From Psammoneis japonica (lineage: Eukaryota): DNA of 64,000 nucleotides. Shown piece by piece: positions 9,751-39,052 of the stretch (position 1 is the stretch's first letter; every line of letters begins with the position of its first letter). The translations under genes and the position numbers were made by a program. The notes below the pieces were generated by a model. It saw only the letters and a program-made list of their open reading frames with translations. It was not told where the DNA came from and did not search any database. The stretch lies in contig QPGO01000070.1 in the NCBI GenBank assembly GCA_008632985.1, forward strand, positions 310,001 to 374,000, read 5' to 3'.

Positions 9751-11019
9751 TTAAATTTCGGGACTCAAGTCGGATGCATTGTCAAGCTCCCGGCGCTGTC
9801 GCTTACGAATATAGATAGCCCCGGCAATGATAAGCACCGCTCCAGCAGCAATGGCGACGTAAACCGGGGTAGCAAGACCTCCGCCGTCTGAATCAGAAAC
9901 GTCATTGTCTTCTCCACCATCTCCAGTCGGATCTGACCGAGCCCCTTCGGGATCGATTTCAGTCCAGGTTACCCTGAAAACTCCTTCAGCTGCTTTATCG
10001 AACATTCCAACATCCATGTTCCCTCTGATAAATTCCTTGATATCGTTCTCAATGTTACTTGCTGCGCCGTCAGTGTATACCGTGATACCACCAAATGCCG
10101 CCGTGCACAAGTTGTTTGCCTGTGTAGCCGATTGACATGGAACTTAAGAGAAAGACTTATGTTAGTTTTACGATTCTTGACAGAATGCCGATGTTACTTG
10201 CAAAGAGCCGACAATGCTCATAGAACAGCATCTTACCTTGAAGTTCAGAATCATCAGGAACCACGCTGACTCCAATGATGTCGGAATTTCCACGGAGTAA
10301 CGAACTTGCAGAATTATCACATGCCGGAATGGATAGAGTTGGGAAAACTAACGCTACAATCGCCTTGTCGATCCCGGGAAGGATGGAGCCTCTCAAATCG
10401 CTATTGTCAGCTGGGTTATACTCCACCTCGTAATTGTAAAGTATGGGGGTTAGATTATCCATTGAAGTTTCGCCAAAGGACCTTCCGCCATTGCTGGAGC
10501 AAGGAGTAAGTGGAGGATCAAGGGTCGACTCCGGTGGTGCGGGTGGAGGCGGTGGAGGAGGAGGGGGCGGCGGCGGCGGCGGCGGCNNNNNNNNNNNNNN
10601 NNNNNNNNNNNNNNNNNNNNNNNNNNNNNNNNNNNNNNNNNNNNNNNNNNNNNNNNNNNNNNNNNNNNNNNNNNNNNNNNNNNNNNNNNNNNNNNNNNNN
10701 NNNNNNNNNNNNNNNNNNNNNNNNNNNNNNNNNNNNNNNNNNNNNNNNNNNNNNNNNNNNNNNNNNNNNNNNNNNNNNNNNNNNNTGGAGGCGGAGGCGA
10801 CACAGGGAGAGAGGGTGGTTGGACAGGAGGAGGAGGTGGCGACAGAGGTAGGGATGGATCTCCAGCACCGCCATATCCAGGACTGTCAACATCGATTTCA
10901 TCGGGGGAGTCTGACATGTGTGGTGGGAGTTTTCGATGGTGATGGTTGACGTCGGACCCTTCTGCCACAGTGAAAGCGGCAATCACGGCTGCAAACGGTA
11001 TGAACTTGAAAGGCTTCAT
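9751..11019 (-). CDS. Type I membrane/cell-surface protein with a poly-proline stalk, spanning the assembly gap
   Basis: Signal peptide MKPFKFIPFAAVIAAF, Pro runs on both sides of the gap, intron 10236-10143, and C-terminal TM helix VYVAIAAGAVLIIAGAIYI followed by RKRQRR. Confidence 0.7.
10587..10785. other. Assembly gap (N run) within a GGC-rich poly-Pro coding tract
   Basis: Run of N flanked by (GGC)n on the left and GGAGGCGGAGGC on the right. Confidence 0.99.
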
Positions 11020-13526: not shown

Positions 13527-16500
13527 TGTCTCTATCGATCGATGTGTTGGTGTTGGTTGAACAGGTCGTCTCTTTGAAAAATTGTGTGAAATTCTTTGTC
13601 TTGGCAGCAGAAATTCAAACGGCAACGCAGGAATCAGTACTCGGACCTCCGTATTTGAATATAACCGTTGGGCGCGGTTGGTGCCAATCTTCATTCAAAT
13701 TTAAATAGCGTTGTATATAAAAATTTCGAACTTTGGTAAAGAATGTGTTGATACTGGCCAGCGTAGATTTCTACGCAAACAAAAAATATAGCTCGAGAGG
13801 CACGTACACTGCGTACCAAAGGCTACGACAACGGCTCGTTCGTTGATGATGATCGACATTTCTGAGGAGTCCGTCAGTCGCATGTGCACCTGCCGTGGTG
13901 AATGATGCAATGATGTGTTGAACAAGAGCAACAATTCAATTCAGTCCTAAAAATCACACTGCACTTCCTGCAGCTGCCAACAATGAGCTCAGTCATGCCT
14001 GGGTGTCCTTTCAATCCACAACTGTGGTGAAAACAGGGGGAGAGTCAAAGAGCGCCGCACAGGCAGAGTGGCGGCCGAAATGCATGCTTGGAGCTGCAGG
14101 GCAGCAGAGATTGGTGCTGCACAACTGACTCCTTCACCATGGTCTTGATGGGTCTTGATGTAAGACTGCAGTCAGCATTGGGAGCAGAAGTGGGCTGTTT
14201 TTGCCACCATTGCTGCCTTTTCGGGGGGCAGCGTGTCATCTGTGACAGCAGCAGCAGCGCGGCAGCACTGCGGGGCATGTGCCGTGTTGAATGATGCAAG
14301 AGAGGACAAAAGGCAGTGCCTGGCAACAGCATCACTTTTTTGAATGTGGCTGCCACTGCAACACCTTCTGCCTGCTGCTTTTTGAGAGAGAGGTGCCATG
14401 CAGGGTCCTTGTTCTTCTTTTTTCTTCTTGGGGGGGGCTTGGTTCCAGCGACAGGTTGCAGGTCACAGAGAAGCAAAAAATCTTCCATTTTCAGCAGCCC
14501 AACATGCCTTGACAATGATGTTGCTTGTGAGATCTGTCCTTGAATTTGCAGCCCAGTTGGCAGTGTGTCCCTTTCCAACCCTTTTGTTGCATCTTCACCA
14601 CTGCCGCTCTCCAGCTCAGGAAGCACTTTTGCCTCAAGGAGATTCTCCCTGTCTCCAATGGACACACCTCAATCAAGCTGGAGTGGCCAATTGGCCATCC
14701 ATTTGTCTGAGTGCCCCAAAAGGCCAAGCCAGTTTCCACCAGTGAGCAACCAACTTTTTGAGCTCTGCATGCTTGAGGGCATCTGGAAGAAACAAAGTTG
14801 TTCCGCCTGCCCAAGTGTTGCTCCAGAACTCTGACCACAGCCATGGCCAGATGTGCAGTGAGCCATTCAAGTTTCTCAACCTTTGTGCCATCTTGGCAGA
14901 GTGGCATTTGATTGCTGTGCAGGAGCTCATTTTGGTCATCAAGCATGAGTGAGTGGGTGTGCATTGACTTTTGAGCTGCACAAAACCACGAAGCAGTGCT
15001 GTGCATCAATGTGTCATGAGAGGCATGTGCTCACTTGTTGTCAAAAAGCTTGAGTGCACTGAGGGGGGCAATGTGAAATAAAGACTTCTTGGCCCCTGCT
15101 GAAGTCATGGCAGTCAGTGTCTCCAGGAGATGCCAATGAGCACCAAGGTGCAGGCTGGCAGCAGATGTGAGCACCACCAGATGGCAGCTTTCTTCTTTGG
15201 CAGAGCAAGGTGCGAAAGTGTCAACTCCAAAGACCCACCTGCTGGAAGTCTGGTCAGCTTGGATGCTGGATGCAGCACCCAAGGCATTTGAACATCCACA
15301 GGCCTTCCAACTCAACAATCTGCAACATTGGTTGCTCCCTGTGTTTGGGCAGGTGGGCAAATGACAGAGTCAGCTGAAACAACAGGCTGGAACAAGATGC
15401 CAGGTGCAGCCTCCTGTTTGGTCATTTCCCAGCCAGATTGTTTGCTGCCTGATGGGCTCCTCTTGGCAAAGTCTTTCACCATGGCAACAATGCCAAAATT
15501 GCCAGCAACTTAAATGTGGAGTGATTTGTGAATCTTGCAAGTGAGAGCTGTCACTCTGCTTGTCGCGGAGGCCATTTCAGCATCACTTTTGCCTGTGGCA
15601 TGGGTGCACAGGTCTCAAAAAAAACATTTGAGCTGGAGTGCACACAAAGCTCTGTTGTGCCTGAGTGTCCTTTTGACCCAAAACCATGGACTGACCATGG
15701 ACAACACCAGGTTCACAGTGTTGTGTGCTTTTCAAGCCACAAATGCAACTTCAGAGTTGTGTGGTGATGCACACCAGCACTGCACAGCCATGTCTTGCAC
15801 AGCTGCCAAGGCCTCCTCTTGCCTGACTCAGCCAGCATTGGTGGCAAGGCAAGTGGCTTTGTTTGCCACCTCAGGGCCAGCTGTGCATTGCTCAGCACAC
15901 TGTTGGTGTCATTCAAAGTCAGTTGAGATCAGGACAAAGTTTGCAATGGCACCAGTGCAAAAGTCTCCGGCAGCTTGCAAACTCAGCCTCCTTTTGATGA
16001 GATCATCCAAACTGTGCCATTGGCAAGGGATGGTTTGGAGTTTCAGGCTCTGACACGTGCATTCAGTGTGGCCACACATCCTGTGCTGTGCTCCAAAGGT
16101 GTTCTGCAAATCCCAAAAGCCTTCAGATTTCTCAATCTAGAAAGTTGCAGGCAACCTTGCTGGGAGCAGCCACCCACTGGGATGTTGTGAGCTTGGGCTG
16201 TGAACCAAGGTGCTGCAATGTGTCATTCGTTGGGCTCTCCAAACACCACCAAAAATTGTGCCCACCTGATTTTTTATTTTGCATTGCAACTGCACCACTG
16301 GCACTGGCTTCAAAGCAGCTCTTGGACTTGCCTTCTTTTTCTCCAGCAAAGCCAGAGTTTTGTTTGTGACTGTCCAATGTGTGCTTTTTGCACACTTGAT
16401 TGTGGTCCACGACTCACTGCATCATGACTTTTTCTCACAGGGAGGGGTCTTGAATTTGTCCAGATCTTTTAATTGCCAATGATGTCAGCTGCATGCACAG

Positions 16501-19039
16501 CTGTCAGCCATTGAAAATTTTTTTTGATCCACTTCTGGACTTTTTGCCAGACCAAGTGCGCTGCAATTTTGCACCACCTGGAAGTCCACCAGACACCATC
16601 CCACATCCAAGACTTGTGCCAAGTCCTGTCAGCCCTGCAGCCCACAGGACCTCTCCCAGCTGTTGCCATGCATGCAAACATCTTAACAACCACAAGCATG
16701 CACTTGTTGAAACTTGCCACTGCTGGTTTCTGGAATGTCCCAACAAGATTTCAGACAACTTCTCAATCATGTTTTTCTTTGTGGCACTGGAAATTTTGTG
16801 GTTGAGCACCATGCCATGCAGCTCAACAATGTTGCTGCAACTCTCAGCAGTGCAGCAATGGGTGCAAGCACTGTCTGCTGCATGTGTGGAGCCATGTGGC
16901 CCTCCAGAGGAGTGTCAAGCCATCTCCCCACAAAAGATGGTTGTGTTGATGGGTTGATCTCATGGAAACTCAGTTCCAAGAAGTTCTGTGTGGATTCTGT
17001 GCAAACACAGTTAAATCTGCTTTTGCTCTCAACTCTCCCATGACCAAGACCCATCATTTTGAAATCCAACAGCTGTGTGGTGTGTTGATGAGCAGCAAAC
17101 AAGCACACAGCCCTTCATTTTGGGAGTGTTCCCCAGTCTCTTCTGATTGTGACAGGAGCTGGCAGCACCAAGTGCAGCAAAAGGTTTAAACTGTGTTGCT
17201 CCATTGGTTTGGGACAGCCCTGCCTGTTGTTGGCAGCACTTGCAGTTGCAAAAAAAAAACTGGACACCAGGTGTGTGCAAAAAAAAAAGAAGCCACAATT
17301 TTTCAACAGTTTGTCCCAACTCTTTCTTTGTGTTGAGCAACTGTGTCCTGCTGAAGCTTGTGGACAAATTTGACAACCATGTGACACAAACAAAACACGC
17401 AATGAGCAAGCCTTTCAGAGCAGGAGGCACTGACTGCTGTGCAACATTCTGCAGGAGAAAGTTGAGAGAAAGATCCAGAAAAGAGAATGCAAGCATGCAG
17501 CAGTGGATGTGTGTGTGGCAGCACTGTTGCTCCTGTGGGTGGTGTTTGCACATGGAGGACAGTGTGGCATCACTGCTGACCACACCGCCCTTTGCAAAAA
17601 GAGTTGCTGCACTGCTGGCCAGAAAAATGCAAGGGCACACCAATCTGAGCCATGCTGCTGCTGCCAGAGTTGCTGGTGCCTTCACCACCCCAGGTGCTGC
17701 CCTCAAACATGTTAAGAAACATGCCGCCCCTAAAACACAGCACAAGCTGGGGTTGTCACAATGTGAAATCCACAACAGGAGCACTGCTGATGCCAACAAC
17801 CTCTCCCTCACAGAGCTGCAAAAGAAAGGCACAGATGGGCCTTCAGACCTGAGAGGACCACACCAGAGCCAGAAAAGAAGTTGTCACAAGGTCACCTCTG
17901 CCTGTGTGCTGCACATTGTTGTCAGCTGTTGATGGACCTGGGGTGTTGCTGCAGAGCTTCCAAACAATGGCACAGCACCTTGATGCACTGTGCTCAAACC
18001 CCCCAGCTGGTTGGAGCCACCACAAACAAAAGAACCATCACCAAAGGCTGGAAAAATGGCACAAAGGGCTCAACACACTCCACTCGCAAGGGTGCTGTGT
18101 GAGTGCATGTGTGCCAAAGATTTGGCACCCAATCTTCTTTTGCCAGTCATGCCAGCCACCATCATCATCATGATCAAGTTGTGCCATTTTTGTGCACCAC
18201 CGTGACTTTGCAAAAATTTGTGAGCAACTTTGCAAACATTTGGACTTTTGTGTTTGGGCATGGATGCTTCATGTGAGGAACAAATTTTGAGGAGAGCACA
18301 TGCAAAATTTTGAAAATCTGGGCTTGGGCACATGTGCTGCAGTGCACACGCAGCTTCCTCTCAGTTGTCAACAAACATGTGTGCTTCACAAGCAAGAGTA
18401 AAAAAGCACAGCCCAGTGGGCCAGTCTGCAGCACAGCTTGCTTTTGGCTTGTCATCTTGTGCCAGATTGTGGCAACCAACTCTCTCCCCCCCGATGCACT
18501 TTTTTCCTGTTCACTGAGAGCACGCATGTTCTTGAACTCTGTTTGAAATTGAATCAGCAAACTGAGAAATGAGAATTGCAGCCACACTGTCAAACTCAGC
18601 AAGTCTAAAATCTGGACCCCCCTCATGCCCAACGTTTCAACACATGTCCATTTTGGTCAACAGGGAGATCTGCCCATTGGGCCAAGCAGTGTCAGAGTCC
18701 TCAATGGCTGCACAGTGTGGCTGAGCAAAGCTGCAGCTTTGTGGCCAGTGCATGGACAATGTCTCACTCCCATCCATGTCTTTGCAGAGAAGAACCTGCT
18801 CCTGGAATGATCACAGTGGCTCAGCACAGAAGGTCTCATGTGACTGTGTGACTCCTGTGGTCCAGGCATCTGACTTTGCAACCAATGCCCTGGGATGGGA
18901 GCTCTGTTGATGGCTGCAGCACATGATGAACAACCTCCACACTGCTGATTCTCAAGGAATGTGTGTCAAGAATGAATCTTTCCTGCACATGATTTGCAAC
19001 ATCTTTTGACTGAATTTGGCCAGCTGTGAACTGCACCTC

Positions 19040-21990
19040 AGGTCAAATCCAGGTGTGATGGCTCAGAAACATGCTTTTTTTAGCAAGTTTCACCTGGGGG
19101 GAAAACAGAAGTGCCATGCTCTCATGCAACTGTGACAGAGAGAAAAGAAAGAATGTGAGTGTGAGCCTGAGCATTTCTGACAAAGCATGGCACAGCAACA
19201 GTTCTTGAAAATGCAGTGGGCTGGCCAGCATCTTTCTTTGTGATGTGACAGGCTTTTGCATCATGAGTGACACAGTGAGAAAAGACAGTTGACACCACAC
19301 CTCCACTCACCCAGAGCATCAGAAGATGCCATGGTGCTCATGCTTTTTGTGCAAAGAAAAATGTTGTCAGTGGAAAATCACAAGCTGTTGTCCAAAGTTC
19401 GAGCTGGGCTGTTGGGGTGGCTTGGGCTTCCCAAGGTGTGACTGGGATTGACCAGGGTTTGTCATGCACAGCACAGGAAGGCTTGACAGCCTTTGCCAAT
19501 GGGTTGCTTGGGTCATCACACACTTTTCATCAAGTCATGAGATGACTGGATCATCCCTCTTGCATTGAGGGGCCTGGTTGATGGACAATTTACATCCACA
19601 ACCATCACAGCACTCAGGCAGCAGGTCAGGTGGAGAGTGTTCTTGCCATGCCACAGACAGATTGCATCCCAGAACTCTTGGCAAAAGAGAATTTGGTGCC
19701 ATTGAGTGCCAACAGGTGCATTGTCAGCCACGCTCCAGTTTTGGTGCTGTGGTTGACAGCTCTGGCTTTGATTTTGCTTTCCTCTCAGCTGCTTCTCACT
19801 TCACTTTGTGCGTGGTGTCTTTGTGGACCAACAAAGTGAGTGCACCATCAGCTTGGCTGCTGTTGACTGAGCTGATCATGTGGGAACATGCAGAGCACTT
19901 GCTTTGAAGACTCCATTGGACAAGGGATGGACCTGCAAATTTGATTGGGAGGGCAGACAGGGCCAATCTTGGGTTGTTTTCAGCCAAGGTCTCACCAGTT
20001 GGCACTGGAAGAAATTGTTGTGTGATTGCACCATTGGCGCCACTGCAGGGACTTCTGAAGACCAGCGCTGGTGGTTTGTAGATGATGTGAGTTTCAATTT
20101 TGGCAAGGCCTTGGATGACTGAGGTTTGTGACTTAGAATCGGATGGCTGAGGTTCATGACTTAGAATTGGATGACTGAGGTTCATGACTTGGCTTTCTTT
20201 GCTGGTGCTGTCAGTCTTGTGCTTGTTTGGTCTCACCAACGAAGTCTCTGAGGTGGCAGCTGCTTGAAGTGACAGCAAAGCCAAGGTCTCCAAAGCAGGC
20301 CCTGGCATTCTCCAGATTGGAGCTTGTTTTCTGGCACTGCCAGGATGTTCTTGGAGTTGTCAGCAGGGCAGCATCCATGCTTGGGTCCTTTGGCTCAGAG
20401 AGTCAAGAAAAAATCCTGAATTTTCCTGCCACTGCAGAGTCATTGGCATGCCATGGGGTGAGTGTGTTTGGGAAAGAATGCTTGCTGAAATCATGAGCTG
20501 GTGGTGGAAGAAGTCCCAGCCTGCAAGCTGTCATGCCAGGTGCGCCACCCTGTGTGATGCCTTCTTTGCTGAAAAGATGAAAAGGAAGGTGGCTCCAAAG
20601 TGACCATGGATGATCAGGATGCTCCAGCATTTGCAGCTGTTGAAGGCAAACCTTGTGCCAGATTGCCAAAAGTGCCCAACATTGTGTGACATTGGGGTCC
20701 TGTTCTCTTCATTGAATCCACAGGAGGTGTCAACAATTTGATTGTTCCAAATGAGCATTTTTGCATGATGTGTCTTGAAATTTTCATGCTCTTTGTCTGA
20801 TCACCCAAGGCATCACGTGTCGCCAAATCCAAAAACAACAGAGCTCTGCATCAGTGCAAAGTGCACTGGAATGGCACCACAGCACTGCTGGCTTGCTTTG
20901 CACACTGATGTTGCTGCAACACATGCACCAATGACAAAGCAAATCCCCAACAGCCAATGCTCGATTTGGCTGCCAAGCCTTTTCCCACCAAACATGCTGG
21001 TGTGCATCACATTGCACATTTTTCAGACAAACAATGCGCCCATGAAAAGAGAGGTGAGTGAAAGCCCTAAAAGGCATTGGGCAAAGCCCCCATGTTTGTA
21101 ACTTCAATGTGATTCAGTCACTCAAGCCATTGACAGTGCAGCTCAGAACATCTCAATTCTCTCTGATGCAGAGGATGGCTGATGCTGCTGTCAACATGTG
21201 CCTGAGAGGGGACAGACAGAGAAAAGGACAAAGCAAGTGCTGCTCCTGTGGACTCAGAGTGGCAGCTCATGGCCTGTTCTGTGAAAATGTGGCTTCTTTT
21301 GCTTCCAAACTTCTTCATGACACACTGCAATCTGCTCAGGAGTTCATTGCAAAAACCTCCACACATCCTCCTTTGGATGGAAAGGACTTGTTTGTGACTT
21401 CCATTTTCACCTGGCATCAAACAGCTTTCACCCAAACTAGCTCCAGTGCTTCTCACACACAGACCTGGGGTTCAGAGCAGTTGATGAGCTTGTGCAAGTC
21501 TGGAGAGTTAGTTTGTGGAGACTTCATGTGGCCCCAGCACTGGACATCCACAACCTCAGATCTCAAAGTTGTTGATGATGCTGCAAACTTGAATTTGTTT
21601 CAAGTGCTTCCATGGATGTGTTCTGTTCAATGACACTTCCATCCACAACAATCATGTGCAGATTGCTCATTTGAACTTGATTGTTGGCCACAACACCAGC
21701 AATGGCAAGGCATGCATCAATGGTGTCCACCAACTCAAAATGAGGGGCAGGCCACGCCACATTTAAAAACAGTTCTCCAGGCCAGGAATGCTGTCAAGAC
21801 ATTCTGTTTAAAAATTTTGATGTGCTTTTCAGGCAAGCATTGATCATTGGTGGCATGAAGCTTGATCTTGAGAGGAACATTGGAGCCAAAACATTGCCAA
21901 AGCCAAACAGCAAGTTGCAACTCCCAATGTCTCCCATCAAGAGACACATGATCATCAAGCAACAAAGAGTGGAAGATTTGGGCAACACTC
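19040..21990 (-). mobile_element. Decayed non-LTR retrotransposon (CRE-like, RT plus CCHC zinc knuckle plus restriction-like endonuclease region)
   Basis: Motifs in order across frameshifts: VDTSCGFNEENRT..HFWQSGTRFAFN, SKEGITQG..MTACRLGLLP, PWHANDS (=WYADD), ARACFGDLGFAVTSSSCHLRDFVGE, QFLP..LALSALPIKFAG, QEFWDAICLWHG, CDGCGCKLSINQAPQCK, AKAVKPSCAVHDKP, CVTHDAKAC. The 5' boundary is uncertain. Confidence 0.85.
20111..20190. repeat. 28-bp tandem repeat, about 2.9 copies, inside the LINE
   Basis: Units start at 20111, 20139 and 20167, consensus TTGGATGACTGAGGTTCATGACTTAGAA. Confidence 0.9.
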
Positions 21991-22685
21991 TTAGAGTCAA
22001 ATTGTGCCTCTGGTCTGAAGTCAAGATTTGGTGATCAATTTGTTTTCAAATCCATGGAGGTGCCACACAATCCAAAAACACACAACAAGCAGTCAGGAAG
22101 GAGAGAATGAAGAAGCCAACTGCAAAAGAATGATGCAGAAGCAGCAGCAACAACAGCAAGAAGTGTGACAAATCAAGTGCAACAAGTGCAAACAAAAGGA
22201 CAGAGCAGCTGACAATGACTGATGCAGCTGATGGGATGCTCAGCATGGATGACTGATGTGTGACGCATGGGTGGGAGAAGTTGTCAATTGAGGGGTGAGG
22301 GGTGTGAACAATGTCACCACCAAGCTCTTGACTTCTTAGAGTCAAATTGTGCCTCTGGTCTGATGTCAAGATTTGGTGATCAAATTGTTTTCAAATCCAT
22401 GGAGGTGCCACACAATCCACAAGCACAAAACAAGCAGTCAGGAAGGAGAGAATGAAGAAACCAACTGCAAAAGAATGATGCAGAAGCAGCAGCAGCAACA
22501 GCAAGAAGTGTGGCAAATCAAGTGCAACAAGTGCAAACACAAAAGGATGGAGCAGCTGATGATGGCTGATGCAGCTGATGGGATGCTCAGCATGGATGGC
22601 TGATGTGTGACACATGGGTGGGAGAAGTCATTCATCAATTGAGGGGTGAGGGGTGTGCACAATGTCACCACCAAGCTCTTGACTT
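21990..22685. repeat. Direct tandem duplication, about 345/351 bp
   Basis: Copies 21990-22334 and 22335-22685 both start CTTAGAGTCAAATTGTGCC and end CCAAGCTCTTGACTT, with a CAG-rich core. Confidence 0.95.
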
Positions 22686-22859
22686 GTGCAAAAGCTCAGA
22701 CAGAGAGAGCCCAGATCTTTTGAGCTCTTTGTGCTTCACGACAATGCTTGTGCCATCACTTTCACAGCTCTTTCTGCCACAGCTGATTTGTCAAGACAAC
22801 TTCTGAAGAAAGTGTTGAGATCTAGAAAGCCAAGAAGCTGCAAAAGTGCAAGAAGCAGC

Positions 22860-23720
22860 ACAAGGTTGACCCCATCATTGCCAAAAGCAGCTCAGAGACC
22901 ATTGTTTGTGGTTGATGGAATGGAGCCAAGGGCACTTGGGGCAGGCAGGAGCAAAGACATGCCAAAGGGCCTTTTGCCAAGGAAAAAGACAAAGATCTTT
23001 GGCCACCAGCATTGGCTTTGAGCTTGAGCCCACATGGAAGACAAACCAGCAGCACCCCTTGAAGCCAGCCAAGTGCAAACTGCTCTTCAAAAGAACTCTA
23101 GAATGTTTGGTTTGCACAGAAGCAGCACCAGGGGCCCTGTGGAAATGCCAAAAACATCTGGAATGTTGTGATTTTTGACACCCCCCTGGCACTGATTCTG
23201 CACTTGATTTGACGCAGTTTCTGCACATTCTGGACTTCATTGGCATTTCTGCTGGGACCCTGGCACTGCTTCTGTGCAAATTTGATTTTTTAGATTTTTT
23301 TGAATGGCAGCAAAGATGAAAGTCTTGGAAGCTGGGCAAAAAGCACAAAGGTTTGGCACGTGCCAACAAATGCTCATTGGGCAAGGGAGCCTGGTGCTGA
23401 GCCAGAGCAAGTTGACCAGATGCAGAGCAGTGCTGGGAGGAGCGCATGTCTCAACATTGCAAAAAGGGCAACTGCTCCACATGGGGGTGCCCTTGTCCAG
23501 ATGTGTGTGCAAAGTGTGGCACAACTGTCAGAAGTTGAGGGGTGGCAAGCACTCTGATCTTTCGGCGGTGCAGCTGCAAAAGCTTGATGAAGTTGGCATT
23601 TTGAACTCAAACTGTGAGGATGCTGCAAGTGTGCCTCATGAGAGGAATGAATTCAACAACTGCTTGAATGGCACAAAGAGCTCTCTGGCATGTCAATGTC
23701 ACCACCAATCACCCCACTCT
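22860..23720 (+). pseudogene. Degenerate helicase-associated (HA) domain repeat gene
   Basis: Fragments in shifting frames: CQKQLRDHCL, RALG, SIGFELEPTW, SLGSWAK..QR, CQKLRGGKHSDLSAVQLQKLDEVG. These resemble the HA pattern (Y..HG.C.VP, LG.W...QR, L..IGF.W) with Tyr replaced by Cys. Confidence 0.45.
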
Positions 23721-25214
23721 GTGAAGCTTGGTGCGGTGGCTGTGGCGAGAACATGAGAAACATGTGCAGGACAAGCCAACCACTCTTAGGCGCAGACGAA
23801 CAAAGACTTTTTCACGCTGATGGCAAAACGCCCGTGCGGGTCGTGAGGGCAACCAAATCGTGGAGGGGCGCTTATTTCAAAATGTGAATTTGAGCGTAAT
23901 TTTTGTTCTCTTTTTTTGCTTTTGTGGGGGATGCGTCTTCACTCTCATTCCTTTCTCGCTCGTGCAACTCAAGGAAGAGCACGGCAACACGGTGGACGGT
24001 GGTTCCTAAAAAAAAAGGGGAGCACTCGGACAATGGATATACAAACAACTGTCCATCAAAAGAATCTGAAGCAGGAATCACGGCAAACAATCGTGTCCTA
24101 CGGACGACCAAAGGGCGCTGAAACTTGCAGACATTGGATTTGTGTTTGATGCCAGGCTCAACAAGAATGGCAGAAGTGGTGGCTACTTTCTAATGCTGCG
24201 GACTGATACGGTATGAATGGAAGCAAAAATGTGTAGCATCTGACAAGGACTGATTCGTAAAAGATGGCATTGAAGAGAACGGCCCACTCCAGAAAGCAGT
24301 GCAGTTCGAGTAACTCGCCCCGTCTTGCTTGGTACACAACCAGATTGCAAATACAGTTACTGCTTGTCATTTCGGCAAGCGTACAAAAGCATGTGGGTTC
24401 GTCCTGATTCCAAAGATACAGCAGCTGAAGCAATAGACTTGGACAAGACGCCGGTTGCCGATCGTCCAGCCAGATTTGTCGCCTTGATTCCTCCCGAGAC
24501 GGTTGAGTTCCTCTTGGCAAAGTCTTTCACCTCGGAAACAAATACTGGATTGCTGCGTGTTAAAGTTGGAGAGTGATTCGCGATTTTCGCAAGCATGAGC
24601 TGTCTCTCCTTTCGTCAGAGAAACCATTTCAATGTCACCTTTGTCAACGGTACATAATGTCGGTCTTCTGGGAACTATCACAGTGTCGACAATAGGCGCA
24701 TGTGAATACTTGCGCCATGTTTAGGGACCGTCAGAGAATCGATAGAAGCAATGATCTAAAGGATTTGTGTCCCGAACCACGTGAGGATCCACGTCGTTTC
24801 CCGAGAGATCTTCGGAGCGGCCGGTGTCGAGGCCATGTCATGGTGAATATAGGAACAAACTCAACCTGGTTTGCATCAAAGCTCATTGTTTCACTGCTTT
24901 GACAAGGATCATTCTGCATTCTTGATTCGGTCGGTCATGGCCCTGATGATGAAGGGTGCTGTAGTGCATGCGCCGCTCCCGAAGCCCCCAAATCTTGACG
25001 CCGGCGTATTCATTCTGCAGAGCACTACGGAGAAGTACCAAGTCCATGGATGGGAGCTCTTGCGACATTATGAATGCAGAAAGTTTTTTGAGAGAACTCC
25101 TAAGTACTTCATGGGTTTAAGCCACTTGATGCCCATCAAGATAACCTTTCTTACCATGTGCTCCTAAACCTTTCTGTCGCCGTTCTCTAGCAATGGGTAA
25201 CAATTTGATCATGT

Positions 25215-25749: not shown

Positions 25750-27700
25750 AATCTGGATCAGATTCAAGTGCAAGTAAAAAAAAAAAGATCGCACACACGG
25801 AAGACGACAGACTTTCAAATTCTGCCGAAGCCGAATGAAGCGATTTTCAAAACCACTGAGGTGCCTTTTTCCAGCAGTTGTTGTCACGGCTGCAACAACG
25901 GAAGAACGACGTGTGGCCTTCACTTGGCGCTGCTTCAATTGACTTGGTGTACCCATCATCTTGTTCCATTTGTTCATGCCTCGGTGCAGCTTTCAGACAA
26001 TCAACTGAAAATGGCAGCAAGAGCAGCCAGAGCTTGGGGAAATTGTTCCGCACAAAAGTGTGTGCGCAAGAACAAAGTCGACCACTTTTCTCCTCTGTGC
26101 TCCTCAAGTGTGCTGTGACATCAGAGCACCATGCTCCACAACAAGCAACTGAGGCATGTCAAGGGGACCAGAGTGTGGTTCTGCAGAAGTGAGAAGAGTT
26201 GTGCTGTTGAATGAAAGCTTGCCCTGGTGTGTGGCATCATGTGAGCGACAACGGGAGCAAAGTTGCAGCTGTGAGCCATGGCCATGCCAAATTGACATGG
26301 CAGAGAGAGCCACACAACAAGTGCAGCAAATGCAGTGTCTGTCATCTGCAATTTTCACTTTGCTGAGGATGCAAACACAAGACCACTTAAGTTTGCAAGT
26401 GTGACAAGACTTGAAGAACAAGTGCCAAAAAATCAGAAAAGATTCTCATGTGGATTGTGCCAATGACAGAGGACCTTGTGGCCCATTTCAATCTGGGGTG
26501 AAATGGCAAACATGAGTTGCTTCCTGTGGGAGTGCAAGCTCAGCACTCATTTTGACTGCCTTTTGAAATGCCAACTCATTTGATTGAAGGGCACCAGCAC
26601 TGGCAGCCCATTGGACAGCCAGCTTCTGGATCTTGGCAGTTGTCTGAAGAGCTTTTCCATGATGAAGACTGCCAAGCTCTTCCTGAGTGGTCAGGCCACC
26701 ATCTGTGAGCTGTGCTCTGCTGCTTCTCACTCCAAGGGCTGTGGGATGGATTGTGCTGAGGAGGGGGCCAGGTGTGCATCTGTGAATTGGCAGATGACTC
26801 TAGATTGAGCCCAAGCTGAAGACACACAGGTCAGAGTTCACAAGCAAAAAGAAGAGAGATTCTCCAGCTCTTTTCTTCTCTTTGTTCTCTCACCTGAAAA
26901 ACCGGTGTTGAGGGGAGGGGATCTGGCTCTGGCTGCTTGCTCCATTGCGATCTGAGAGGATTCTTCTTGGACAAATTGATTGAAAGAGTTGCACGTGTGC
27001 TCCATTTTGCTGTTGTCATTGAATGCAATGGTTGAGGACACACACACACAGTCAGATCAGAAGAGATGGTGGCATGTCCTCAATGGTTGAATTTCTCTGC
27101 AGCCGCCCTTTGAAATGAAGTGCAGAAGTCCCATCCAATGGGCTGGCAGCTGTTTTGTCATTGTCAAGATTTGGATGCATCATTGGCAAGCAACTTTGTC
27201 AGGACTCAATGGCAGGAGCTGCAGGGCTTGCACAGTGTCGACATGCTCTGTTCATGGAAATGACTGCAGAGATGCTCAGAACAAGTCAGCTTGTGCCAGG
27301 ACACACTGAGGATGCTGAGGTCAAGGCTGTGTGCTTGTGAGAGGCTGGTTGCTTGGCATGGGAAGGAGCTCCTCATTTGCTGAATTTGCTGAAGAGCACC
27401 TCGCTCACATGACTCACTGGTTGAGGAAGAGGCTCAACAGCTTGCTGGCTCCTGCATGAGGCACTCACACCATTGCCGTGCAGCATTGCCATCTGGTGCA
27501 ATGCTGAACTTGGCCAATTGTTGCATGTTCCTGCCACACTGCACATTTTTTGCACTGCTGTGGTGCAGGTTGGCTTGTTGCTGGGTGGAAGCGCAGCACC
27601 TCAAACATCGATTTTTGGTTTGCCATTGAATGAAATTGGATGTGCTAAAAACAAAGCTACAAAGCATGACAGAGGCTTTGTGCTTGTACAAGAACACAAC
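25750..27700. other. Second CpG/TpA-depleted block (decayed repeat or gene of unknown identity)
   Basis: Same TG/CA saturation and Tyr-poor ORFs as the 13.85-23.87 kb block. No domain could be recognised. Confidence 0.85.
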
Positions 27701-28060: not shown

Positions 28061-29557
28061 TCAAACAAACAAGAAAAGAGACAGCATGATGGAGAACGTG
28101 GTGGTCCATCCAACAATGCTCAAGGGCACCGCATCCGAACTATCATCCTCGAAAACTTCCGGAGCTCCAGAAAGAGTAGGATTGAGAGTAGGATTGGCCG
28201 CGGGTACTGTAGGGGATGCGGTGGGTGCTGTAGGGGATGCGGTTGGTGAGAGACTTGTGGTTGGCCCCGCAGATGGCTCTGGTGTAGACGGAGGCGCCGT
28301 TGGCGGAGCGGTCGGTGCCGGCGGGAAGGTTGGCAGGGGCGTCGGGCGGATCGACGACGGAGGTGTCGGTGCGCTCGAGGGTGTTGTCGGCGATGGTGTC
28401 ATTGGTTGAGTTGTGCTCAAGGGTGCTGACGGCGATGGCGGCGGTGTTGGTCGTGGAGTGGGTGGCGGTGTTGGTCGTGGAGTAGGAGGCGGTGTTGGTC
28501 GTGGAGTAGGAGGCGGTGGAGGTGTCGGTGGCGCAGTGGGTGGCAAGGGAAACGCAGTCAAAATCGTAGGTCGGGGTGTAGGAGCAGGCGTTGGTGGAGT
28601 TGGTGTGGTCGGTAGCGTAGGCCTGCTAGTTGGAGCGGGAGTAGGTTGGATGGCAGTGGTGGTGTATGCGCAAGAAGGATTCTTGCACGTCCCAATGAAA
28701 TCGTACCCAAAAATCCTTTTTTGATCAAAGTCGACAATCTGAAAACATCTCCCACTGACATAGGCATAATCTCGTGATACTGAACCGCACTCTCCATTCT
28801 CGTACTTGCATCTGAATCGTGTTTTGAACTCGTTGCATTTTGTGCAGTCCGAGTTGGAGCAGTGAGCTCGTCGAAAGGCCAACTTTTCTTTGTCAGTGCA
28901 AACCGCAATGTAATAACCAACTTGATCGTGTCTTCGACACCTCCCGTCCGCAATGATCTCCTTTGAAACACCGTTTGATTTGAATACACTGCAATTTGTG
29001 ACGTTTCGCATACGCCAGGAACAAGGTTCTGGTTTCAGTGTCTCTTTTGGTTGAGTTGCACACGAAGGTTTTGCGCAAGTCCCCATCATACCATATGCCG
29101 CATCGACAACATTGGAACGCGGGTCTCGTCGTTCCGAACACATGGAGGGTTCTCTCTGTTCATTGCGCGCAATAAAACCGCATTCACCGGCTAAGCCGTC
29201 GCAACCGGGCACAAATTCATTGCATTCAGAACAGTCGCTGTTCTTACAGTGCGCTCTCAGAAATTTGACTGGGCTTGTGCTGGCTGCACCTGTACAAACC
29301 GCCATGTAGTACCCGAGCTCTTGATTGTAGTTGCATCGACCGTCCACATTCACTTTTGTCGTTTTACCTCGTTCCGCAACAAGCTGACAAGGACTACCGC
29401 CACTGATAAAATTCCAACTACACGTGTCATCTTGCAGTTCTCTGTGATTTTGCGTCGTCGTGGGAAACATATACGAAGCCTCTGTTCTAGGATCTGCATT
29501 AACTGATACACTGAGGCATAGTGTAACAATAGTGACTAGGGATCGGACAAGCACCAT
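28061..29557 (-). CDS. Secreted cell-surface protein: two Cys-rich repeats, Pro/Thr mucin-like stalk, hydrophobic C-terminus (possible GPI anchor)
   Basis: Signal peptide, duplicated module CSW...DGRC...GYY.AVCT...RAHC.NSDC..CNEF...GECG...G.C..PSCA, (PPPTPRPT)n repeats and a hydrophobic tail. Confidence 0.85.
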   Translation of the reverse strand: MVLVRSLVTIVTLCLSVSVNADPRTEASYMFPTTTQNHRELQDDTCSWNFISGGSPCQLVAERGKTTKVNVDGRCNYNQELGYYMAVCTGAASTSPVKFLRAHCKNSDCSECNEFVPGCDGLAGECGFIARNEQREPSMCSERRDPRSNVVDAAYGMMGTCAKPSCATQPKETLKPEPCSWRMRNVTNCSVFKSNGVSKEIIADGRCRRHDQVGYYIAVCTDKEKLAFRRAHCSNSDCTKCNEFKTRFRCKYENGECGSVSRDYAYVSGRCFQIVDFDQKRIFGYDFIGTCKNPSCAYTTTAIQPTPAPTSRPTLPTTPTPPTPAPTPRPTILTAFPLPPTAPPTPPPPPTPRPTPPPTPRPTPPPTPRPTPPPSPSAPLSTTQPMTPSPTTPSSAPTPPSSIRPTPLPTFPPAPTAPPTAPPSTPEPSAGPTTSLSPTASPTAPTASPTVPAANPTLNPTLSGAPEVFEDDSSDAVPLSIVGWTTTFSIMLSLFLFV

Positions 29558-29989
29558 TGTCAAAACCCAGTGACTGGAATGAGCTCATCAATCGTTAAAA
29601 AAAAATGAGGTGTTGCAGGAGGGAGCCAACGAACGTTCGGTGAGACGTGTTCAGTTGGCATTTTTAAACCAAATTTTCAAGATTCGATCCCTCCTGTAGA
29701 AATCTACAGCGCGGTGCAGTACAATTCCTTGCCAGAGGTACGTTAAGTTTTTACTATCAGGCGGAAACTGGTATGTTTATATTACGCAGTATGAATGACG
29801 CATTGGACATTTCTATATTTTCAGTTATCAAAACGGAAAGCTACGACGTGGACAAATTTTGACAGGATATTCATTTTTGTATACACTTATATGGTTCCAA
29901 AAAACGATTGTCGACTCCTCTTCCAACAACGAGTCAGGTGAAAAAAATAGATTCCAAAATAATCATATTCAAATAAAATCACAATCGTG

Positions 29990-30612
29990 GATGTGACAAA
30001 ATGGCTCAGAACTCGTTCCATGCATCAAGCCATTGTTGTTGTGGCGCCAATCTGCCCACTGTGGTGTTGTGTTTTTCCAGAGGAGCAACAGGTGAGATGA
30101 CCAAAGCTGGGGCTGGGTTGAGCTGTCAGTGTGAGGACCAGCTTTTCGACCAGCTTCTTGGGCAAAAGAGCTTGGCTTGCCCATCGAGCACTCTGGGCAG
30201 AGCAAAGGCACAGGTGCCAGGCTTCGCTCTAGCTTGGCAGCTTTGAGTTGGCTGGTGCACTCACTTTTTCTTGCTTCTGTCACCAGCAGCCAGCTCCAGC
30301 TCAGCTGCCCACACTCAGGTGGCTTGAGCACAAACAAGGACAGCCACCGTCCCAAGAAGGCTCCAAACACAAAGTGTGCAAAAACTTGCAAGAGAAGAGA
30401 TTTTTTGGGGCTCTGAAATGTGATGGACAACCCAGAGACTTTCACGAACACTCACCTGCTCTTTCCATGTGTCCACCGCTGGCAAGCGGCACGACACAGC
30501 AACGAAATCTCCATGATGCTCTGACGGTGCGGCACGCCACGACGTGCCCGCGAGAGATTTTTGTGAGGGAGGATGACCTTTGACAGTCATTGGTCATTGC
30601 TTGCTTTGAAGG
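29990..30612. other. Third, small TpA/CpG-depleted block
   Basis: Only about one TA (CTAG near 30230) in ~620 bp. CG is reduced in the left two-thirds. Confidence 0.75.
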
Positions 30613-30729
30613 GCATAAACAATTCCATTTGATTCTGCGCGGGAAAAAATGCAAAATGTGGTGCCGTTATCTCCTTGTGCAACTAGCTAGAGTAACACAT
30701 TCGATCGATCAATCACATAGCATCGTACA

Positions 30730-34950: not shown

Positions 34951-35874
34951 TTATATATGCTTTGTTTCGGTAAGAATTGATCTTGGTGATCTGTGATGGG
35001 AACCATATTTGTTGATCTTTGTGGCCGAGGTCCCTTTTAGTTGGGTTGCAACAGAGGAATTGCGAAAGTTTTGCAAGGTCCCATTTCGGCAAATCTCGCC
35101 CTGCGTAAGTACCCAGGAGTTTTGGTCTATCCGGATAGACTTTGAAATTGAGCTCAAGAGAATGTCAAGGACAGCTGTATCGTCACACGTGACAATATCC
35201 AACGCGTTACAAACACAAGCCAGAGCCAGTGTAGAGTCTTTTACGCTGACGAACTTGTGATTGCAAACTGCCAATTCAGACTGGTAACGCGCAATCTCGA
35301 AAGCCTTTTCAAACGCCTTGGGTGTCAACACCGAGCAAGGCAACAGGTCAAGAAAGTGCCTTATGAATGACATGGTAGTGGGCGGGTTCATTCGCCATTC
35401 CAGCGCATTCAGAATCTCGACTTCCATGCTCGTGATTTGATCCTCCGTATAAATTCCTTGAGACAATCTTGACACGAGGTGAGGGTCCATAGCTTCCGCT
35501 TCGAAAACCTTGATGGCGGTGTACAAGCATGTCATTGAAGCAAGCTGGAATAACTTTCTTGAGGAGAGTGCGCGTCGGCCGGGCTCGGTCACGAGGTATC
35601 TATCCAAATAGTTCATCGCGATAGCGGCAGTTTCGCGGCTCAAATGACAAAAATCGATGATATCGTAGCACCAGTGAGCCATCTTGGTCCTCCATTCGAC
35701 ATCGGTGGGCGCTTCGGAATGAAGGGGGGAGACAGACTGATGCGTCGTCTCTTGCTGGTGAAAGTAGTCTTGACATTGGTACGTAGTTTCCTCCATCTTG
35801 AGCATCACCTCAAGAGATGAGGCGGTATATTCGGAAGCAGAGCTGCTACAAGCAGCGTTTGAAGAATTGCACAT
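34951..35874 (-). CDS. Diatom-specific cyclin (dsCYC2-like), copy 1
   Basis: Cyclin box WRTKMAHWCYDIIDFCHLSRETAAIAMNYLDRYL, FQLASMTCLYTAIK, LEWRMNPPT. Confidence 0.92.
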   Translation of the reverse strand: MCNSSNAACSSSASEYTASSLEVMLKMEETTYQCQDYFHQQETTHQSVSPLHSEAPTDVEWRTKMAHWCYDIIDFCHLSRETAAIAMNYLDRYLVTEPGRRALSSRKLFQLASMTCLYTAIKVFEAEAMDPHLVSRLSQGIYTEDQITSMEVEILNALEWRMNPPTTMSFIRHFLDLLPCSVLTPKAFEKAFEIARYQSELAVCNHKFVSVKDSTLALACVCNALDIVTCDDTAVLDILLSSISKSIRIDQNSWVLTQGEICRNGTLQNFRNSSVATQLKGTSATKINKYGSHHRSPRSILTETKHI

Positions 35875-36589
35875 GGTGATGTGTGTTTTTTGAATCTCAC
35901 AAGAATACGTGGACGATGATAGCGATGTCCTTTAGCGTTTTGTGAGAAGAGACAGAGGAAACGAGAAAAATTTAATGCCGGAGAAAATGACCCACAATAA
36001 GTCTTTCTACGTCAATTTCTACGGAGAAACTGTCAAACATGAAATATTTAGAGAAAATGACTTATTTGTGAAAAATCAAAATGACAGTGACCCGATTAGA
36101 CAAGATTTCAATGTATGTTGGCCCTTGACAAATCTCGTCGATGTCATTATGACTTCTCTTCGCACCGTCGATGACCGCGAATTGATTCACATTTAACGGG
36201 AAAACAATTAAACGATGACTACTTTCTTCGTAGAAAAGTTAGTTGGATCTACGTAGAAAGAACCGGGAATGGCATTTTCGGTCATTTTGAATTATTCGTT
36301 TCAATTATGAGCTCTTGTGCTTCCGTAGCCTTGGAGTGAACCCGCTCCACCCCTTCGAAGATAGATTGTAATCGAGTGGTGATACTATCATTCATTCAGT
36401 GCCTGTTTGTGTGTCATTGTCATTGTTGAATTGTTGCACGCAGATAAACAGGGGTTTGAGAATCCGAACATTCTCTGTTCACAGAAAGGACATAATACAA
36501 AAGTATTTTGGCGAAGACGACACAACAAACAAGAGTCTCAGCTCAGTTCACAACTTTGACTTGTCATTGGTAAGATAAAATTTTTGAAT

Positions 36590-37937: not shown

Positions 37938-38840
37938 TTAAGCTCTGTTGGCCACAGAACGGGGGGACCCATGAACAGATCCGCAGCCAGTCTCCACAGT
38001 CTTGGCGGACGTGATAGCCGCTGGAACCAATTGTTGGCACTTTTTGAGCGCTCCACTGTTGTAGAGGGCATTCTGTGCACTAGAAAGTTGCATTGAATCC
38101 GTGTCAATGGATGCAACCTTTGCAACAGACTCGAGATAGCTGTTCAGCGAATACTTGTTCATACCAACACATTCGAGAGCGTTGGCGACACAGGCAAAGG
38201 CAATAGTAGAGTCACGGATCTTGACAAACTCGTAATCACAAACCGCAGTCTCCGACTGGAAGCGAGCAATTTCAAGAGCGGCCTCAAGACTTTCGGGGCT
38301 CATTGCCGAGGATGGAATGAGACTGAGAAAGTGCCTGATGAACGACATGGTGGATGGCGGGTTGACCCTCCAGCCAAGAGCGTTGAGGATCTCGACTTCC
38401 ATGTCAGTGATCTGCGATTCTGTGTACATGCCACGGGACAAGTTTGAAACAAGTGCGGGATCAATAGCTTCCGGCTCGTAAATCTTGACCGCTGTGTACA
38501 GGCATGTCATGGCGGCAAGCTGGTAGTACTTTCGTGAGTAGAGTGCCCGGCTGCCCGTCGGTGTCGCGACAAAACGATCCAAGTAGCTAATGGCGATTGC
38601 TGTTGTTTCGCGGCTCAAGCTGCAAAAGTCAACAATCTGATAGCACCATTGAACCATCTTGGCACGGCAGTCAGCATCGAGGGTGGATCTGGCGTTGAGA
38701 GGAGCATTGGGTTGGTCGACCTGTTGGTGGTAGAGGTAATCTTCGCAGTGATAAGTGGATTCCTCCTGCATGCGCATTGCCTCAAGAGAAGAGACAATGT
38801 CTGCCGAGGAAGCACTGGTAGAGATGTTCAAAGAGTTCAT
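37938..38840 (-). CDS. Diatom-specific cyclin (dsCYC2-like), copy 2
   Basis: CRAKMVQWCYQIVDFCSLSRETTAIAISYLDRF, YQLAAMTCLYTAVK, LGWRVNPPST. Confidence 0.93.
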   Translation of the reverse strand: MNSLNISTSASSADIVSSLEAMRMQEESTYHCEDYLYHQQVDQPNAPLNARSTLDADCRAKMVQWCYQIVDFCSLSRETTAIAISYLDRFVATPTGSRALYSRKYYQLAAMTCLYTAVKIYEPEAIDPALVSNLSRGMYTESQITDMEVEILNALGWRVNPPSTMSFIRHFLSLIPSSAMSPESLEAALEIARFQSETAVCDYEFVKIRDSTIAFACVANALECVGMNKYSLNSYLESVAKVASIDTDSMQLSSAQNALYNSGALKKCQQLVPAAITSAKTVETGCGSVHGSPRSVANRA

Positions 38841-39052
38841 GTTGTTGATGTTGTTGTTGGATTGTATTTGCAGTGGAGGGAAAAATTATGTGCGTGTGGA
38901 TGGAAACGCGAAACAAGAAAGAAAATGATGTGGTTTCTCCGCGTTTTCGAAAACAACGTGGTCGTGAACTGACGAAAGGTCTCGACCCCAACGGTTTCCG
39001 GTACTGGAATTGGTACAGATTCTACGAGAGTAGCACGTAGGAAAATGTCAAA

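Follow-up and report, generated by a model that had tools for sequence, protein, structure and literature searches.

A stretch of 64,000 nucleotides from Psammoneis japonica (contig QPGO01000070.1 of assembly GCA_008632985.1, positions 310,001 to 374,000; hereafter the window, numbered from its first letter) carries on its minus strand the remains of a retrotransposon open reading frame (ORF). Very probably these remains are a dead, frameshifted fragment of an R2-like reverse transcriptase (RT), truncated on both sides, in which two strand-symmetric and dinucleotide-specific transition processes have come near completion, in place and at the level of the DNA. The fossil, at 19538-20791, lies inside a sharp-edged compositional island (island 1, core 14300-23560). 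The changes run from TA to CA or TG and from CG to CA or TG; loss of TA and loss of CG are separable, and the TAs that survive show a bias in sequence context.

The retrotransposon fossil and its family

A preliminary description of this DNA, made from its letters alone, had picked out minus-strand codons that read as decayed RT motifs: TGG CAT GCC AAT GAC at 20453-20439 (WHAND, traced to WYADD), ATG ACA GCT TGC AGG CTG GGA from 20534 (MTACRLG, traced to MIAYGLG), TGC CAC CTC AGA at 20258-20247 (CHLR, traced to RYLG) and FWDAICLWHG at ~19675-19646 (traced to FRDAICLRYG), together with a TGA after a Cys-rich stretch. All of these are present; the observation is confirmed and its interpretation is largely right. 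Direct searches with the fossil return no RT: Pfam gives no RVT_1 match for 10 raw ORFs (E <= 1) or for the six read-through frames of 14001-23600 (E <= 10), word-indexed protein searches with the raw fossil, at near and longer lengths, yield nothing RT-like, and a PDB search with it yields nothing RT-like either, the sole match being NhaA at E = 0.5.

An exhaustive HMMER search returned 12 library proteins at E <= 0.001, eight of which carry the predicted motifs SKEGVTQGDPLSM.AYG.G, PWYADD and RYLGGFIGE; one of them, P0085, additionally carries EFRDSLHLRYA and CDGCG..HALDC. The other four are multi-stretch matches to unrelated or low-complexity proteins. RVT_1 is found in three of the 12, with P0084 reaching 32.6 bits against a curated cut-off of 29.6; the values for P0085, P0083 and five full ORFs, 18-26 bits, lie under that cut-off. 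A tblastn comparison of P0085 with the window gives three collinear pieces over 20791-19556 (E = 2.2e-26). Among 40 candidate stretches from metagenome loci fetched with P0085, 31 were confirmed as relatives, four of which have open ORFs of 1158-1178 amino acids. The RT homology that the preliminary description had proposed as a check on its reading is thus found: full-length family ORFs align to 20785-19538 at E = 1.35e-35, 3.6e-30, 7.8e-17 and 5.7e-18, and P0084 stands above the RVT_1 cut-off. The composition of the relatives is ordinary (observed-to-expected ratios, O/E, of 0.47-1.31 for CG and 0.30-0.87 for TA), so the family is not intrinsically devoid of either dinucleotide.

When the family profile is compared with PDB, R2 proteins are the sole natural matches (E = 6.1e-5, 6.7e-5 and 0.0053), at a weak 24 bits; two designed proteins also appear, without a significant stretch. 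Past the zinc knuckle the family consensus reads ..RHNEIRDEL..GDLLIRG..DCIIDVRVTD.., and this C-terminal region, read by eye, resembles the R2 endonuclease. Non-long-terminal-repeat (non-LTR) groups with a restriction-like endonuclease comprise R2, CRE, NeSL and R4, the CRE elements being marked by insertion into spliced-leader genes. With R2 as its nearest solved relative, a CCHC knuckle after the RT and a C-terminus that by eye recalls the R2 endonuclease, the family is probably an R2-like non-LTR element; of the earlier label 'CRE-like', this much and no more is shown. As in R2-type elements, there is a single ORF of ~1170 amino acids with a central RT; it carries a YADD box, the RT is followed by a CCHC knuckle (CDGCG..HAL.C..RHNE), and GDLLI...DCIIDVRVTD stands in the C-terminal part of the family consensus. 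Unlike what is expected of R2-type elements, its match to R2 is weak, RVT_1 sees the family at 18-33 bits, and the window copy is without both ends.

The fossil corresponds to residues ~543-974 of the ~1170-residue ORF. The window has no tblastn-type match to the first ~540 or the last ~200 residues of the full-length family ORFs, so the copy is truncated, or decayed past recognition, on both sides. Its parts, in order of translation, are as follows.

19538-20791, minus strand: whole fragment of a probable R2-like non-LTR retrotransposon ORF, dead, spanning RT motif A through the CCHC zinc knuckle
20584-20734, minus strand: RT motif A region, codon starts mod 3 = 1, family ..iDAkNAFNE..RHEWP.GARF.FN..
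20439-20582, minus strand: RT motifs B and C, codon starts mod 3 = 2, YADD codons at 20453-20439
20323-20439, minus strand: middle RT segment in the third frame (mod 3 = 0), GPKHGCCP resembling family GPnfGYyP
20232-20321, minus strand: RT motif E region, fossil SSSCHLRDFVGE against family TGnRYLGGFIGe
20113-20190: tandem repeat with a unit of 28 bases, 2.8 copies, in the part of the fossil that separates two homologous segments
19931-20029, minus strand: thumb-side conserved segment, family ..FLPaLFgD..LagLPVKwAG, 33 codons, 37.1 bits
19556-19739, minus strand: C-terminal segment in three frames, 58 codons, 38.3 bits

In a frameshift-aware alignment to the family profile, the segment 20734-20232 scores 95.4 bits and the fossil as a whole shows at least six frame changes, two of them at ~20440 and ~20323; the claim that all motifs share one frame therefore does not hold. 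Motifs B and C of the fossil read SKEGITQGGAPGMTACRLG ... PWHAND, against SKEGVTQGDPLSMFaYGiG ... pWYADD in the family. At aligned codons, the catalytic boxes are QGDPLSM and WYADD in the family (Y 18/20, D 20/20, D 19/20) and QGGAPGM and WHAND in the fossil. In the C-terminal segment, QEFWDAICLWHA aligns to family QEFRDALlLRYA, ahead of the zinc knuckle CDGCG..(H->Q)A..C; this CCHC knuckle comes directly after the RT and thumb, and its ligands, conserved in the relatives as C607 (21/21), C610 (21/21), H618 (21/21) and C622 (20/21), are C, C, Q and C in the fossil. The fossil matches the family at 58 of 116 conserved amino-acid columns. Its 43 single-step mismatches at these columns divide into 19 of the TA/CG type, nine other transitions and 15 transversions, under a labelling that favours the TA/CG channel where synonymous codons leave a choice. 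Purine/pyrimidine codon periodicity agrees with mod 3 = 2 for 20600-20241 and mod 3 = 1 for 20240-19761; it is a weak tool (the true frame won in six of nine host genes) and is not used as support.

The motifs were also sought independently of these relatives. RT genes were fetched from viral contigs by a short motif pattern (all eight that were checked are RVT_1, mostly group II intron RTs), and 43 non-redundant RTs were built into a profile. A channel model then treated each CA or TG as unchanged (0.58), derived from TA (0.20) or derived from CG (0.22), with weights taken from the flank densities. Under this model a chain of motifs B, C and E at 20564, 20462 and 20258, in a single frame, scores 25.1 bits, a value that 3 of 1476 island copies drawn from a second-order Markov model attain in frame, and 10 of 1476 in any frame; in another run of the B-C-E chain the fraction was 0.009 of 2263 null sequences. 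Once the channel is left out, nothing distinguishes the chain, and 492 of 1476 null sequences reach its score. A gapped alignment with the group II profile gave at best 18.7 bits, no better than the other strand. Scoring by the best ancestral residue (the maximum over options) was useless, since all frames reached 60-76 bits, and was replaced by the weighted channel model; a regular-expression chain ([FY]ADD with QG before and LG after) has an expected chance rate of ~0.2 per block, as estimated from counts. Two leads from the group II profile were discarded: a derivation of the W of WHAND from R is ruled out by the relatives, which have W in 20 of 20, and a match to block '2a' at 20728 is in truth motif A. 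The motif reading alone was weak; it is comparison with real relatives that makes the assignment solid.

Among contigs of one run, X1, 275 that are at least 80% alike pile onto 19.4-20.8 kilobases (kb), with a summed contig depth of 541-683 against ~30-90 in most other bins, contig depth not being equal to copy number. The family is multi-copy in the host genome and widespread in marine metagenome contigs. A second pile-up of run X1 contigs (summed depth 277) stands at 23042-23408, a region in which 23321-23172 weakly matches the C-terminus of the family (P0085 residues 578-624, E = 1.5) and an inverted repeat joins 23080-23151 to 23310-23240 at 76% identity; it may be another 5'-truncated copy.

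Loss of TA and CG in the islands

Three islands stand out in the window, each depleted of TA and, to differing degrees, of CG.

Island 1, 13826-24000: TA-depleted; core 14300-23560 CG-poor too; edges 13826-14300 and 23560-24000 TA-poor with CG near normal
Island 1, left edge, 13826-14300: 18 CG and 2 TA in 475 bases
Island 1, right edge, 23560-24000: 20 CG and 3 TA in 441 bases
Island 2, 25776-27645: core 26090-27590 without most CG and TA (2 TA, 9 CG in 1501 bases)
Island 2, left edge, 25776-26089: TA-poor only (15 CG, 1 TA in 314 bases)
Island 3, 29986-30615: TA depleted, CG partly reduced (19 CG, 1 TA, 65 CA, 63 TG in 630 bases)

In 500-base bins the composition switches abruptly at ~14000 and ~23600, and again at 26000-27500 and 30000-30500. 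Each bin of 14501-23500 holds 1-4 CG and 0-4 TA, against ~18-30 CG and 17-35 TA in flank bins. O/E values for the whole window are 0.50 (TA) and 0.81 (CG); across 16001-24000 they fall to 0.05-0.06 for TA and 0.07-0.16 for CG and rise to 1.8-1.9 for CA and TG, whereas CG O/E in the flanks, genes included, is ~1. TA-free gaps of at least 150 bases are concentrated in the three islands; elsewhere they are few and at most 221 bases long, with one exception, a 342-base gap that spans a run of N (an assembly gap of 199 bases at 10587-10785). A background of this composition lies far outside what chance would give. Together, the cores of islands 1 and 2 (14300-23560 and 26090-27590) comprise 10762 bases and retain 30 TA and 48 CG; their dinucleotide densities per kb, compared with 50754 bases of flank, are given below.

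CA: core 112.8, flank 70.3
TG: core 118.8, flank 73.7
CG: core 4.5, flank 55.6
TA: core 2.8, flank 41.0
All pyrimidine-purine steps (sum): core 238.8, flank 240.7

CG and TA thus both stand at ~7-8% of their flank density, and the gain in CA and TG (87.6 per kb) equals the loss of CG and TA (89.3 per kb). G+C is unaltered, at 0.44-0.54 in island bins as in the flanks. Such a balance at constant G+C is expected of transitions at CG and TA, and the near equality of CA and TG in the island (481 and 476 in 14409-18456) points to changes on both strands. Because TA is gone, TGA is left as the sole stop codon, and long meaningless ORFs run through all six frames of the island, none of them an intact ORF.

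The relatives of the fossil give the direction of these changes. At nucleotides where 10 or more relatives could be compared and 80% or more of them agree, all six family-conserved TAs are now CA (three) or TG (three) on the sense strand of the fossil, and none of nine conserved CGs is kept (TG at four, CA at one, other at four). Transitions are found at 18 of 46 TA/CG sites and at 31 of 251 other sites (Fisher 4e-5). The direction that the preliminary description had deduced, from TA and CG to CA or TG, is borne out at these nucleotides, and its ancestral residues agree with the relatives for WYADD, for RYLG and for the FRD..LRY behind FWD..LWH. For MIAYGLG the Tyr and the Gly stand and the Ile does not, the relatives having mostly Phe at that position (15/18). 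The residues concerned are the following.

Y291: 17/18 relatives; window TGC, from TAC
G292: 18/18 relatives; window AGG, from GGN, after C
W313: 20/20 relatives
Y314: 18/20 relatives, TAT or TAC; window CAT, from TAY
D316 (first Asp of WYADD): 20/20 relatives, GAY; window AAT, after C
R378: 22/26 relatives, CGN; window TGC
Y379: 24/26 relatives; window CAC, from TAC
G381: 26/26 relatives; window AGA, from GGA, after C
R589: 21/21 relatives; window TGG
R595: 20/21 relatives; window TGG
Y596: 17/21 relatives; window CAT

Naturally occurring His or Cys at such positions, which would speak for inheritance of the fossil's residues, is confined to a few relatives (L113, L123 and L133) that look TA-edited themselves.

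Comparisons between duplicated segments of the window bear on where the changes took place.

21989-22685: tandem duplication of ~346 bases, 93% identity, inside island 1
15453-15602: island segment homologous to the unmutated segment 24504-24654, 149 columns

The tandem copies differ by 15 events, namely three CA<->TG doubles, one CG/CA difference, six other transitions and five transversions. A CA in one copy opposite a TG in the other (at 22201, 22213 and 22282) is exactly what is expected where the two copies resolved a TA or CG of their ancestor independently of each other. CA-against-TG doubles are also seen in the fossil, at three of 13 family-conserved CA sites and one of 14 conserved TG sites; this suggests that the subfamily of the window had TA or CG at those doubly changed sites. 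In the paralogous pair, the unmutated copy has six CGs, every one of which is TG in the island copy, and three TAs, which are TG, CA and CT there. These two segments are 66% identical apart from ~24 identical bases at 15460-15483 and 24511-24534. One run X1 contig joins 24500 to 15458, which means that further copies exist; a self-comparison of the window in a purine/pyrimidine alphabet added one real match and much noise. Differences between run X1 contigs and the window were taken from 40 listed of 388, the 30 in the island being used and the 10 at 23730-23878 left out; among the 30 listed island differences, other copies have CG where the window has CA or TG in eight cases, the reverse holds in one, and TA is involved in none.

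Loss of TA is not tied to loss of CG. Four zones, 1858 bases in total, are poor in TA and yet retain some or all of their CG; they are placed at three of the four core edges and in the separate 630-base island. The relative L113 (177-3710 of its locus) has an open 1178-residue ORF and a CG O/E of 0.90, and four of its family-conserved Tyr codons, including the Tyr of YADD, have become His (CAT or CAC) or Cys (TGC); L123 (TA O/E 0.30) and L133 (0.34) show one such Tyr change each. An ORF can stay open under such changes because TA loss removes TAA and TAG and new stops are limited to TGA from TAA. From their codons, some metagenome relatives thus appear to carry TA-type damage alone, and together with the TA-only zones L113 makes the two losses separable. 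On our reading TA editing is faster or came earlier, and CG decay is slower and restricted to cores that are older or methylated; the TA-only zones could be editing that spread beyond the methylated core.

The surviving TAs are unevenly distributed over sequence contexts. With Y and R for pyrimidine and purine, 24 of the 30 residual core TAs are Y-TA-R, compared with 352 of 2080 in the flanks (Fisher 1.2e-13), and survival relative to flank density is graded, from 0.000 for RTAY through 0.017 for YTAY and 0.037 for RTAR to 0.32 for YTAR, a gradient expected of an activity that edits the A of 5'-TAY, whichever strand carries it. This TAY rule also describes the contexts of the CA and TG products better than an even split does (squared error ~60 against 147), and the CG survivors are without the strong context bias seen in the TA survivors. 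The 28-base repeat inside the fossil holds two of the 28 TAs left in the core 14300-23560, at 20134 and 20162 (CTTAG sites), and one residual CG at 20140 that is CA in the other copies of the repeat.

Weighing the explanations

Our preferred reading, two processes acting on chromosomal DNA, is as follows. The first converts TpA to CpA or TpG (A:T to G:C) with a 3' preference, A being edited, as it seems, in 5'-TAY so that Y-TA-R survives; the second converts CpG to TpG or CpA, the way methylated CpG commonly decays in silenced repeats. Each process merely exchanges one pyrimidine-purine step for another by a transition, so such steps keep their number and G+C stays the same. The putative TA enzyme would be a DNA adenine deaminase of the ADAT/TadA kind, deamination of 5-methylcytosine is supposed for CG, and defence against mobile DNA may be the purpose. 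In tRNA, the adenosine that such deaminases modify is A34, which follows the invariant U33; for bacterial TadA the site is U-A-C in bacterial tRNA-Arg. The TAY preference would fit an activity of this type, which we offer as a lead rather than a test.

A TpA-directed process has been described in Bigelowiella natans (Mettrop et al., bioRxiv 10.64898/2026.01.13.699255). The main text of that preprint reports a ~1000-fold raised mutation rate in integrated giant-virus and virophage DNA, mutation-accumulation lines in which all changes are at TpA and lead to TpG or CpA, and 124 TpA-poor, CpA+TpG-rich clusters, with RT and endonuclease-RT domains enriched among TpA-poor coding sequences; its authors propose an ADAT2-like DNA adenine deaminase. 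The words 'CpG', 'trinucleotide', 'flanking' and 'context' have no occurrence in that main text, although the supplements may hold such data, and a literature search found no report of TpA-directed DNA hypermutation beyond it. As far as the main text allows a comparison, the two cases share the change from TpA to TpG or CpA on both strands and its clustering in foreign or mobile DNA; here there are three sharp islands, one with a retrotransposon fossil and other repeats, among unaffected neighbouring genes. The cases differ in that TA loss here is near saturation (O/E ~0.05, against 0.45 in the giant-virus region of B. natans), and in that CG is lost as well in the island cores, whereas in B. 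natans the changes are almost exclusively A:T to G:C and C:G to T:A is not raised. That exclusivity does fit the TA-only zones and the relative L113. The 3' TAY context suggested here and the different eukaryote also set the present case apart from what the preprint's main text describes.

Other systems resemble parts of the pattern. Like fungal repeat-induced point mutation (RIP), it is regional, repeat-directed and transition-only, with sharply bounded blocks and destroyed mobile elements; RIP, however, converts CpA to TpA and thereby makes TpA and lowers G+C, whereas here TpA is destroyed and G+C holds at 0.48-0.50. The conversion of CG to TG or CA on both strands, in repeats only and with genes keeping a CG O/E of ~1, is that of methyl-CpG decay, and what is unusual is its extent (8% of flank density left) and the coincidence with a second, TA-specific process. 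ADAR and APOBEC editing shares the deamination-type transitions, the neighbour preference and the aim at mobile or viral sequence, but operates on RNA or single-stranded complementary DNA (cDNA) and is strand-asymmetric; the footprint here is symmetric and continued after a chromosomal duplication.

Four alternatives were weighed. A single repeat-targeted deaminase of dual specificity, removing A from TpA and C from CpG as an analogue of RIP, would erase both self-complementary pyrimidine-purine steps. It would account for the similar depletion of both dinucleotides, each left at ~7-8% of its flank density within one and the same set of sharply bounded cores, and the main text of the B. natans preprint refers to ADAT2 enzymes for which deamination of A as well as of C in DNA has been reported. 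We nevertheless consider it unlikely, as the spatial ranges of the two losses differ over four zones (1858 bases), L113 has TA-type codon changes at a CG O/E of 0.90, other run X1 copies keep CG that the window has lost (eight of the 30 listed island differences), and the strong context bias of the TA survivors is not shared by those of CG. Editing of RNA or cDNA during retrotransposition, before integration, by ADAR-like A-to-I and APOBEC-like C-to-U activities, has in its favour that the target is a retroelement and that ADAR prefers a 5' U, as the main text of the same preprint notes. It is very improbable given the strand symmetry (CA ~ TG, and conserved TAs turned into three CA and three TG on the sense strand), the further changes after a local tandem duplication, and the depletion of ~10 kb of mixed repeats and edge zones rather than of one element.

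The composition might instead be intrinsic, the element or a virus-like donor having evolved without CG and TA, for example to evade sensors or nucleases, and having been inserted as such; RNA viruses are known for joint avoidance of CpG and UpA. To this we assign almost no weight, as the relatives are ordinary in CG and TA, with TAY, CGN and GAY codons at the relevant sites, the island has no intact ORF and its conserved catalytic residues are destroyed, the tandem copies show CA<->TG doubles, and the island extends over sequence that has no relation to the fossil. An artefact of sequencing or assembly, such as systematic miscalls at modified bases, is just as hard to credit. The assembly is a draft with a 199-base run of N, and in a search of sequencing runs one run alone contains the stretch, with no RNA run listed; yet among the matches listed, seven run X1 contig pieces of 430-2603 bases equal the island with 0 differences, miscalls on mixed strands would be expected to leave many CG and TA, and single-read ones only TG or only CA, neither of which is seen, and both the other decay of the fossil and the paralogue comparisons are ordinary biology.

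Several points weigh against the two-process reading of a decayed R2-like RT. The RT assignment rests on intermediate sequences, standard tools being blind to RT in the fossil itself; a six-block RT chain is not significant (0.20 of 2263 null sequences), and the spacing windows of the significant chains were set with the positions of the preliminary description known. A control conversion of all CG and TA in known RTs cuts their scores just to ~70% (median 328 to 229 bits, n = 43), so that the fossil must have decayed much further by other routes, and its 116 conserved columns indeed contain 15 transversions and 15 multi-step changes. Four of the nine conserved CGs were changed by routes other than CG to TG or CA, which makes CG less clean than TA. 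Amino-acid mismatches explained by reversion number 34 against 15.8 expected for the real channel, but mock channels do about equally (20 against 9.3, 21 against 8.2, and 19 against 10.9); it is only the test on family-conserved nucleotides, and not the count of amino-acid reversions, that separates the real channel from the mock ones. The TAY rule rests on 30 surviving sites at one locus, the product class YTGY falls below its prediction, and the relatives support it weakly, with YTAR making up 26% in loci where TA is low and 20% where it is high (Fisher 0.0017) and no significant Spearman correlation across relative loci (p = 0.41). The TA-only edges could be younger, separate repeat fragments rather than spread editing. 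Run X1 may be the very data behind the window assembly and so not independent. We infer, rather than observe, the enzymes, the methylation, a mutation rate that is still raised today and a function in defence.

Going beyond the two-process reading, it is conceivable, with a rather low likelihood, that a RIP-like chromosomal defence is at work, in which one targeting system (one enzyme, or two with the same guide) edits A in 5'-TAY and C in CG, and that the same system acts on the marine metagenome copies, where it would produce the Tyr-to-His and Tyr-to-Cys changes at TAY codons. If this were true, the ratio of TA loss to CG loss would be a two-speed clock for dating insertions.

The neighbourhood of the islands and the meaning of the locus

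The genes around the islands are unaffected by the depletion. Long uninterrupted ORFs in the flanks encode a superfamily-1 helicase, a Kelch protein, an MFS transporter, three cyclins, a CNNM/CorC protein and a DUF819 protein. The host is an intron-poor microbial eukaryote, and the island is ~10 kb of decayed repeats. The best matches of the DUF819 protein reach 60% identity, and those with a species name come from diatoms, at 26-34%; eight of eight proteins looked up for an exact match gave none, taxa from an atlas search are a mixture of Rhodophyta and Bacillariophyta, and near-identical matches from NCBI, JGI or MMETSP are absent. The host is therefore probably not B. natans. The three cyclin genes (Cyclin_N plus Cyclin_C) are paralogous, with DNA 68-69% identical, and all lie on the minus strand, at 34951-35931, 37938-38885 and 59444-60463. 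A 507-residue ORF at 28061-29584 is without a Pfam family and contains tandem repeats of 21-24 bases at 28202-28529; the N-terminal region of the relative L114 weakly matches it (E = 3e-4), probably via low complexity. A search of the window against Rfam gave no match.

TpA-directed hypermutation of foreign DNA has so far been reported solely in the 2026 preprint, whose main text describes it in one chlorarachniophyte. The locus described here is a new instance of this recently described kind of hypermutation, in another eukaryote, near saturation and overlaid on ordinary CpG decay. Unmutated relatives fix the ancestral state of the fossil base by base, the proposed editing of TAY with sparing of Y-TA-R narrows the search for an enzyme, and the separable layers of TA and CpG loss may reflect a fast and a slow process. 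Islands of this type give long false ORFs with TGA as their only stop and escape Pfam, so that annotation pipelines miss these elements; modelling the mutation channel, or using family intermediates, is a remedy. Since some metagenome copies appear to carry TA-type damage alone, the process may be common in marine protists.

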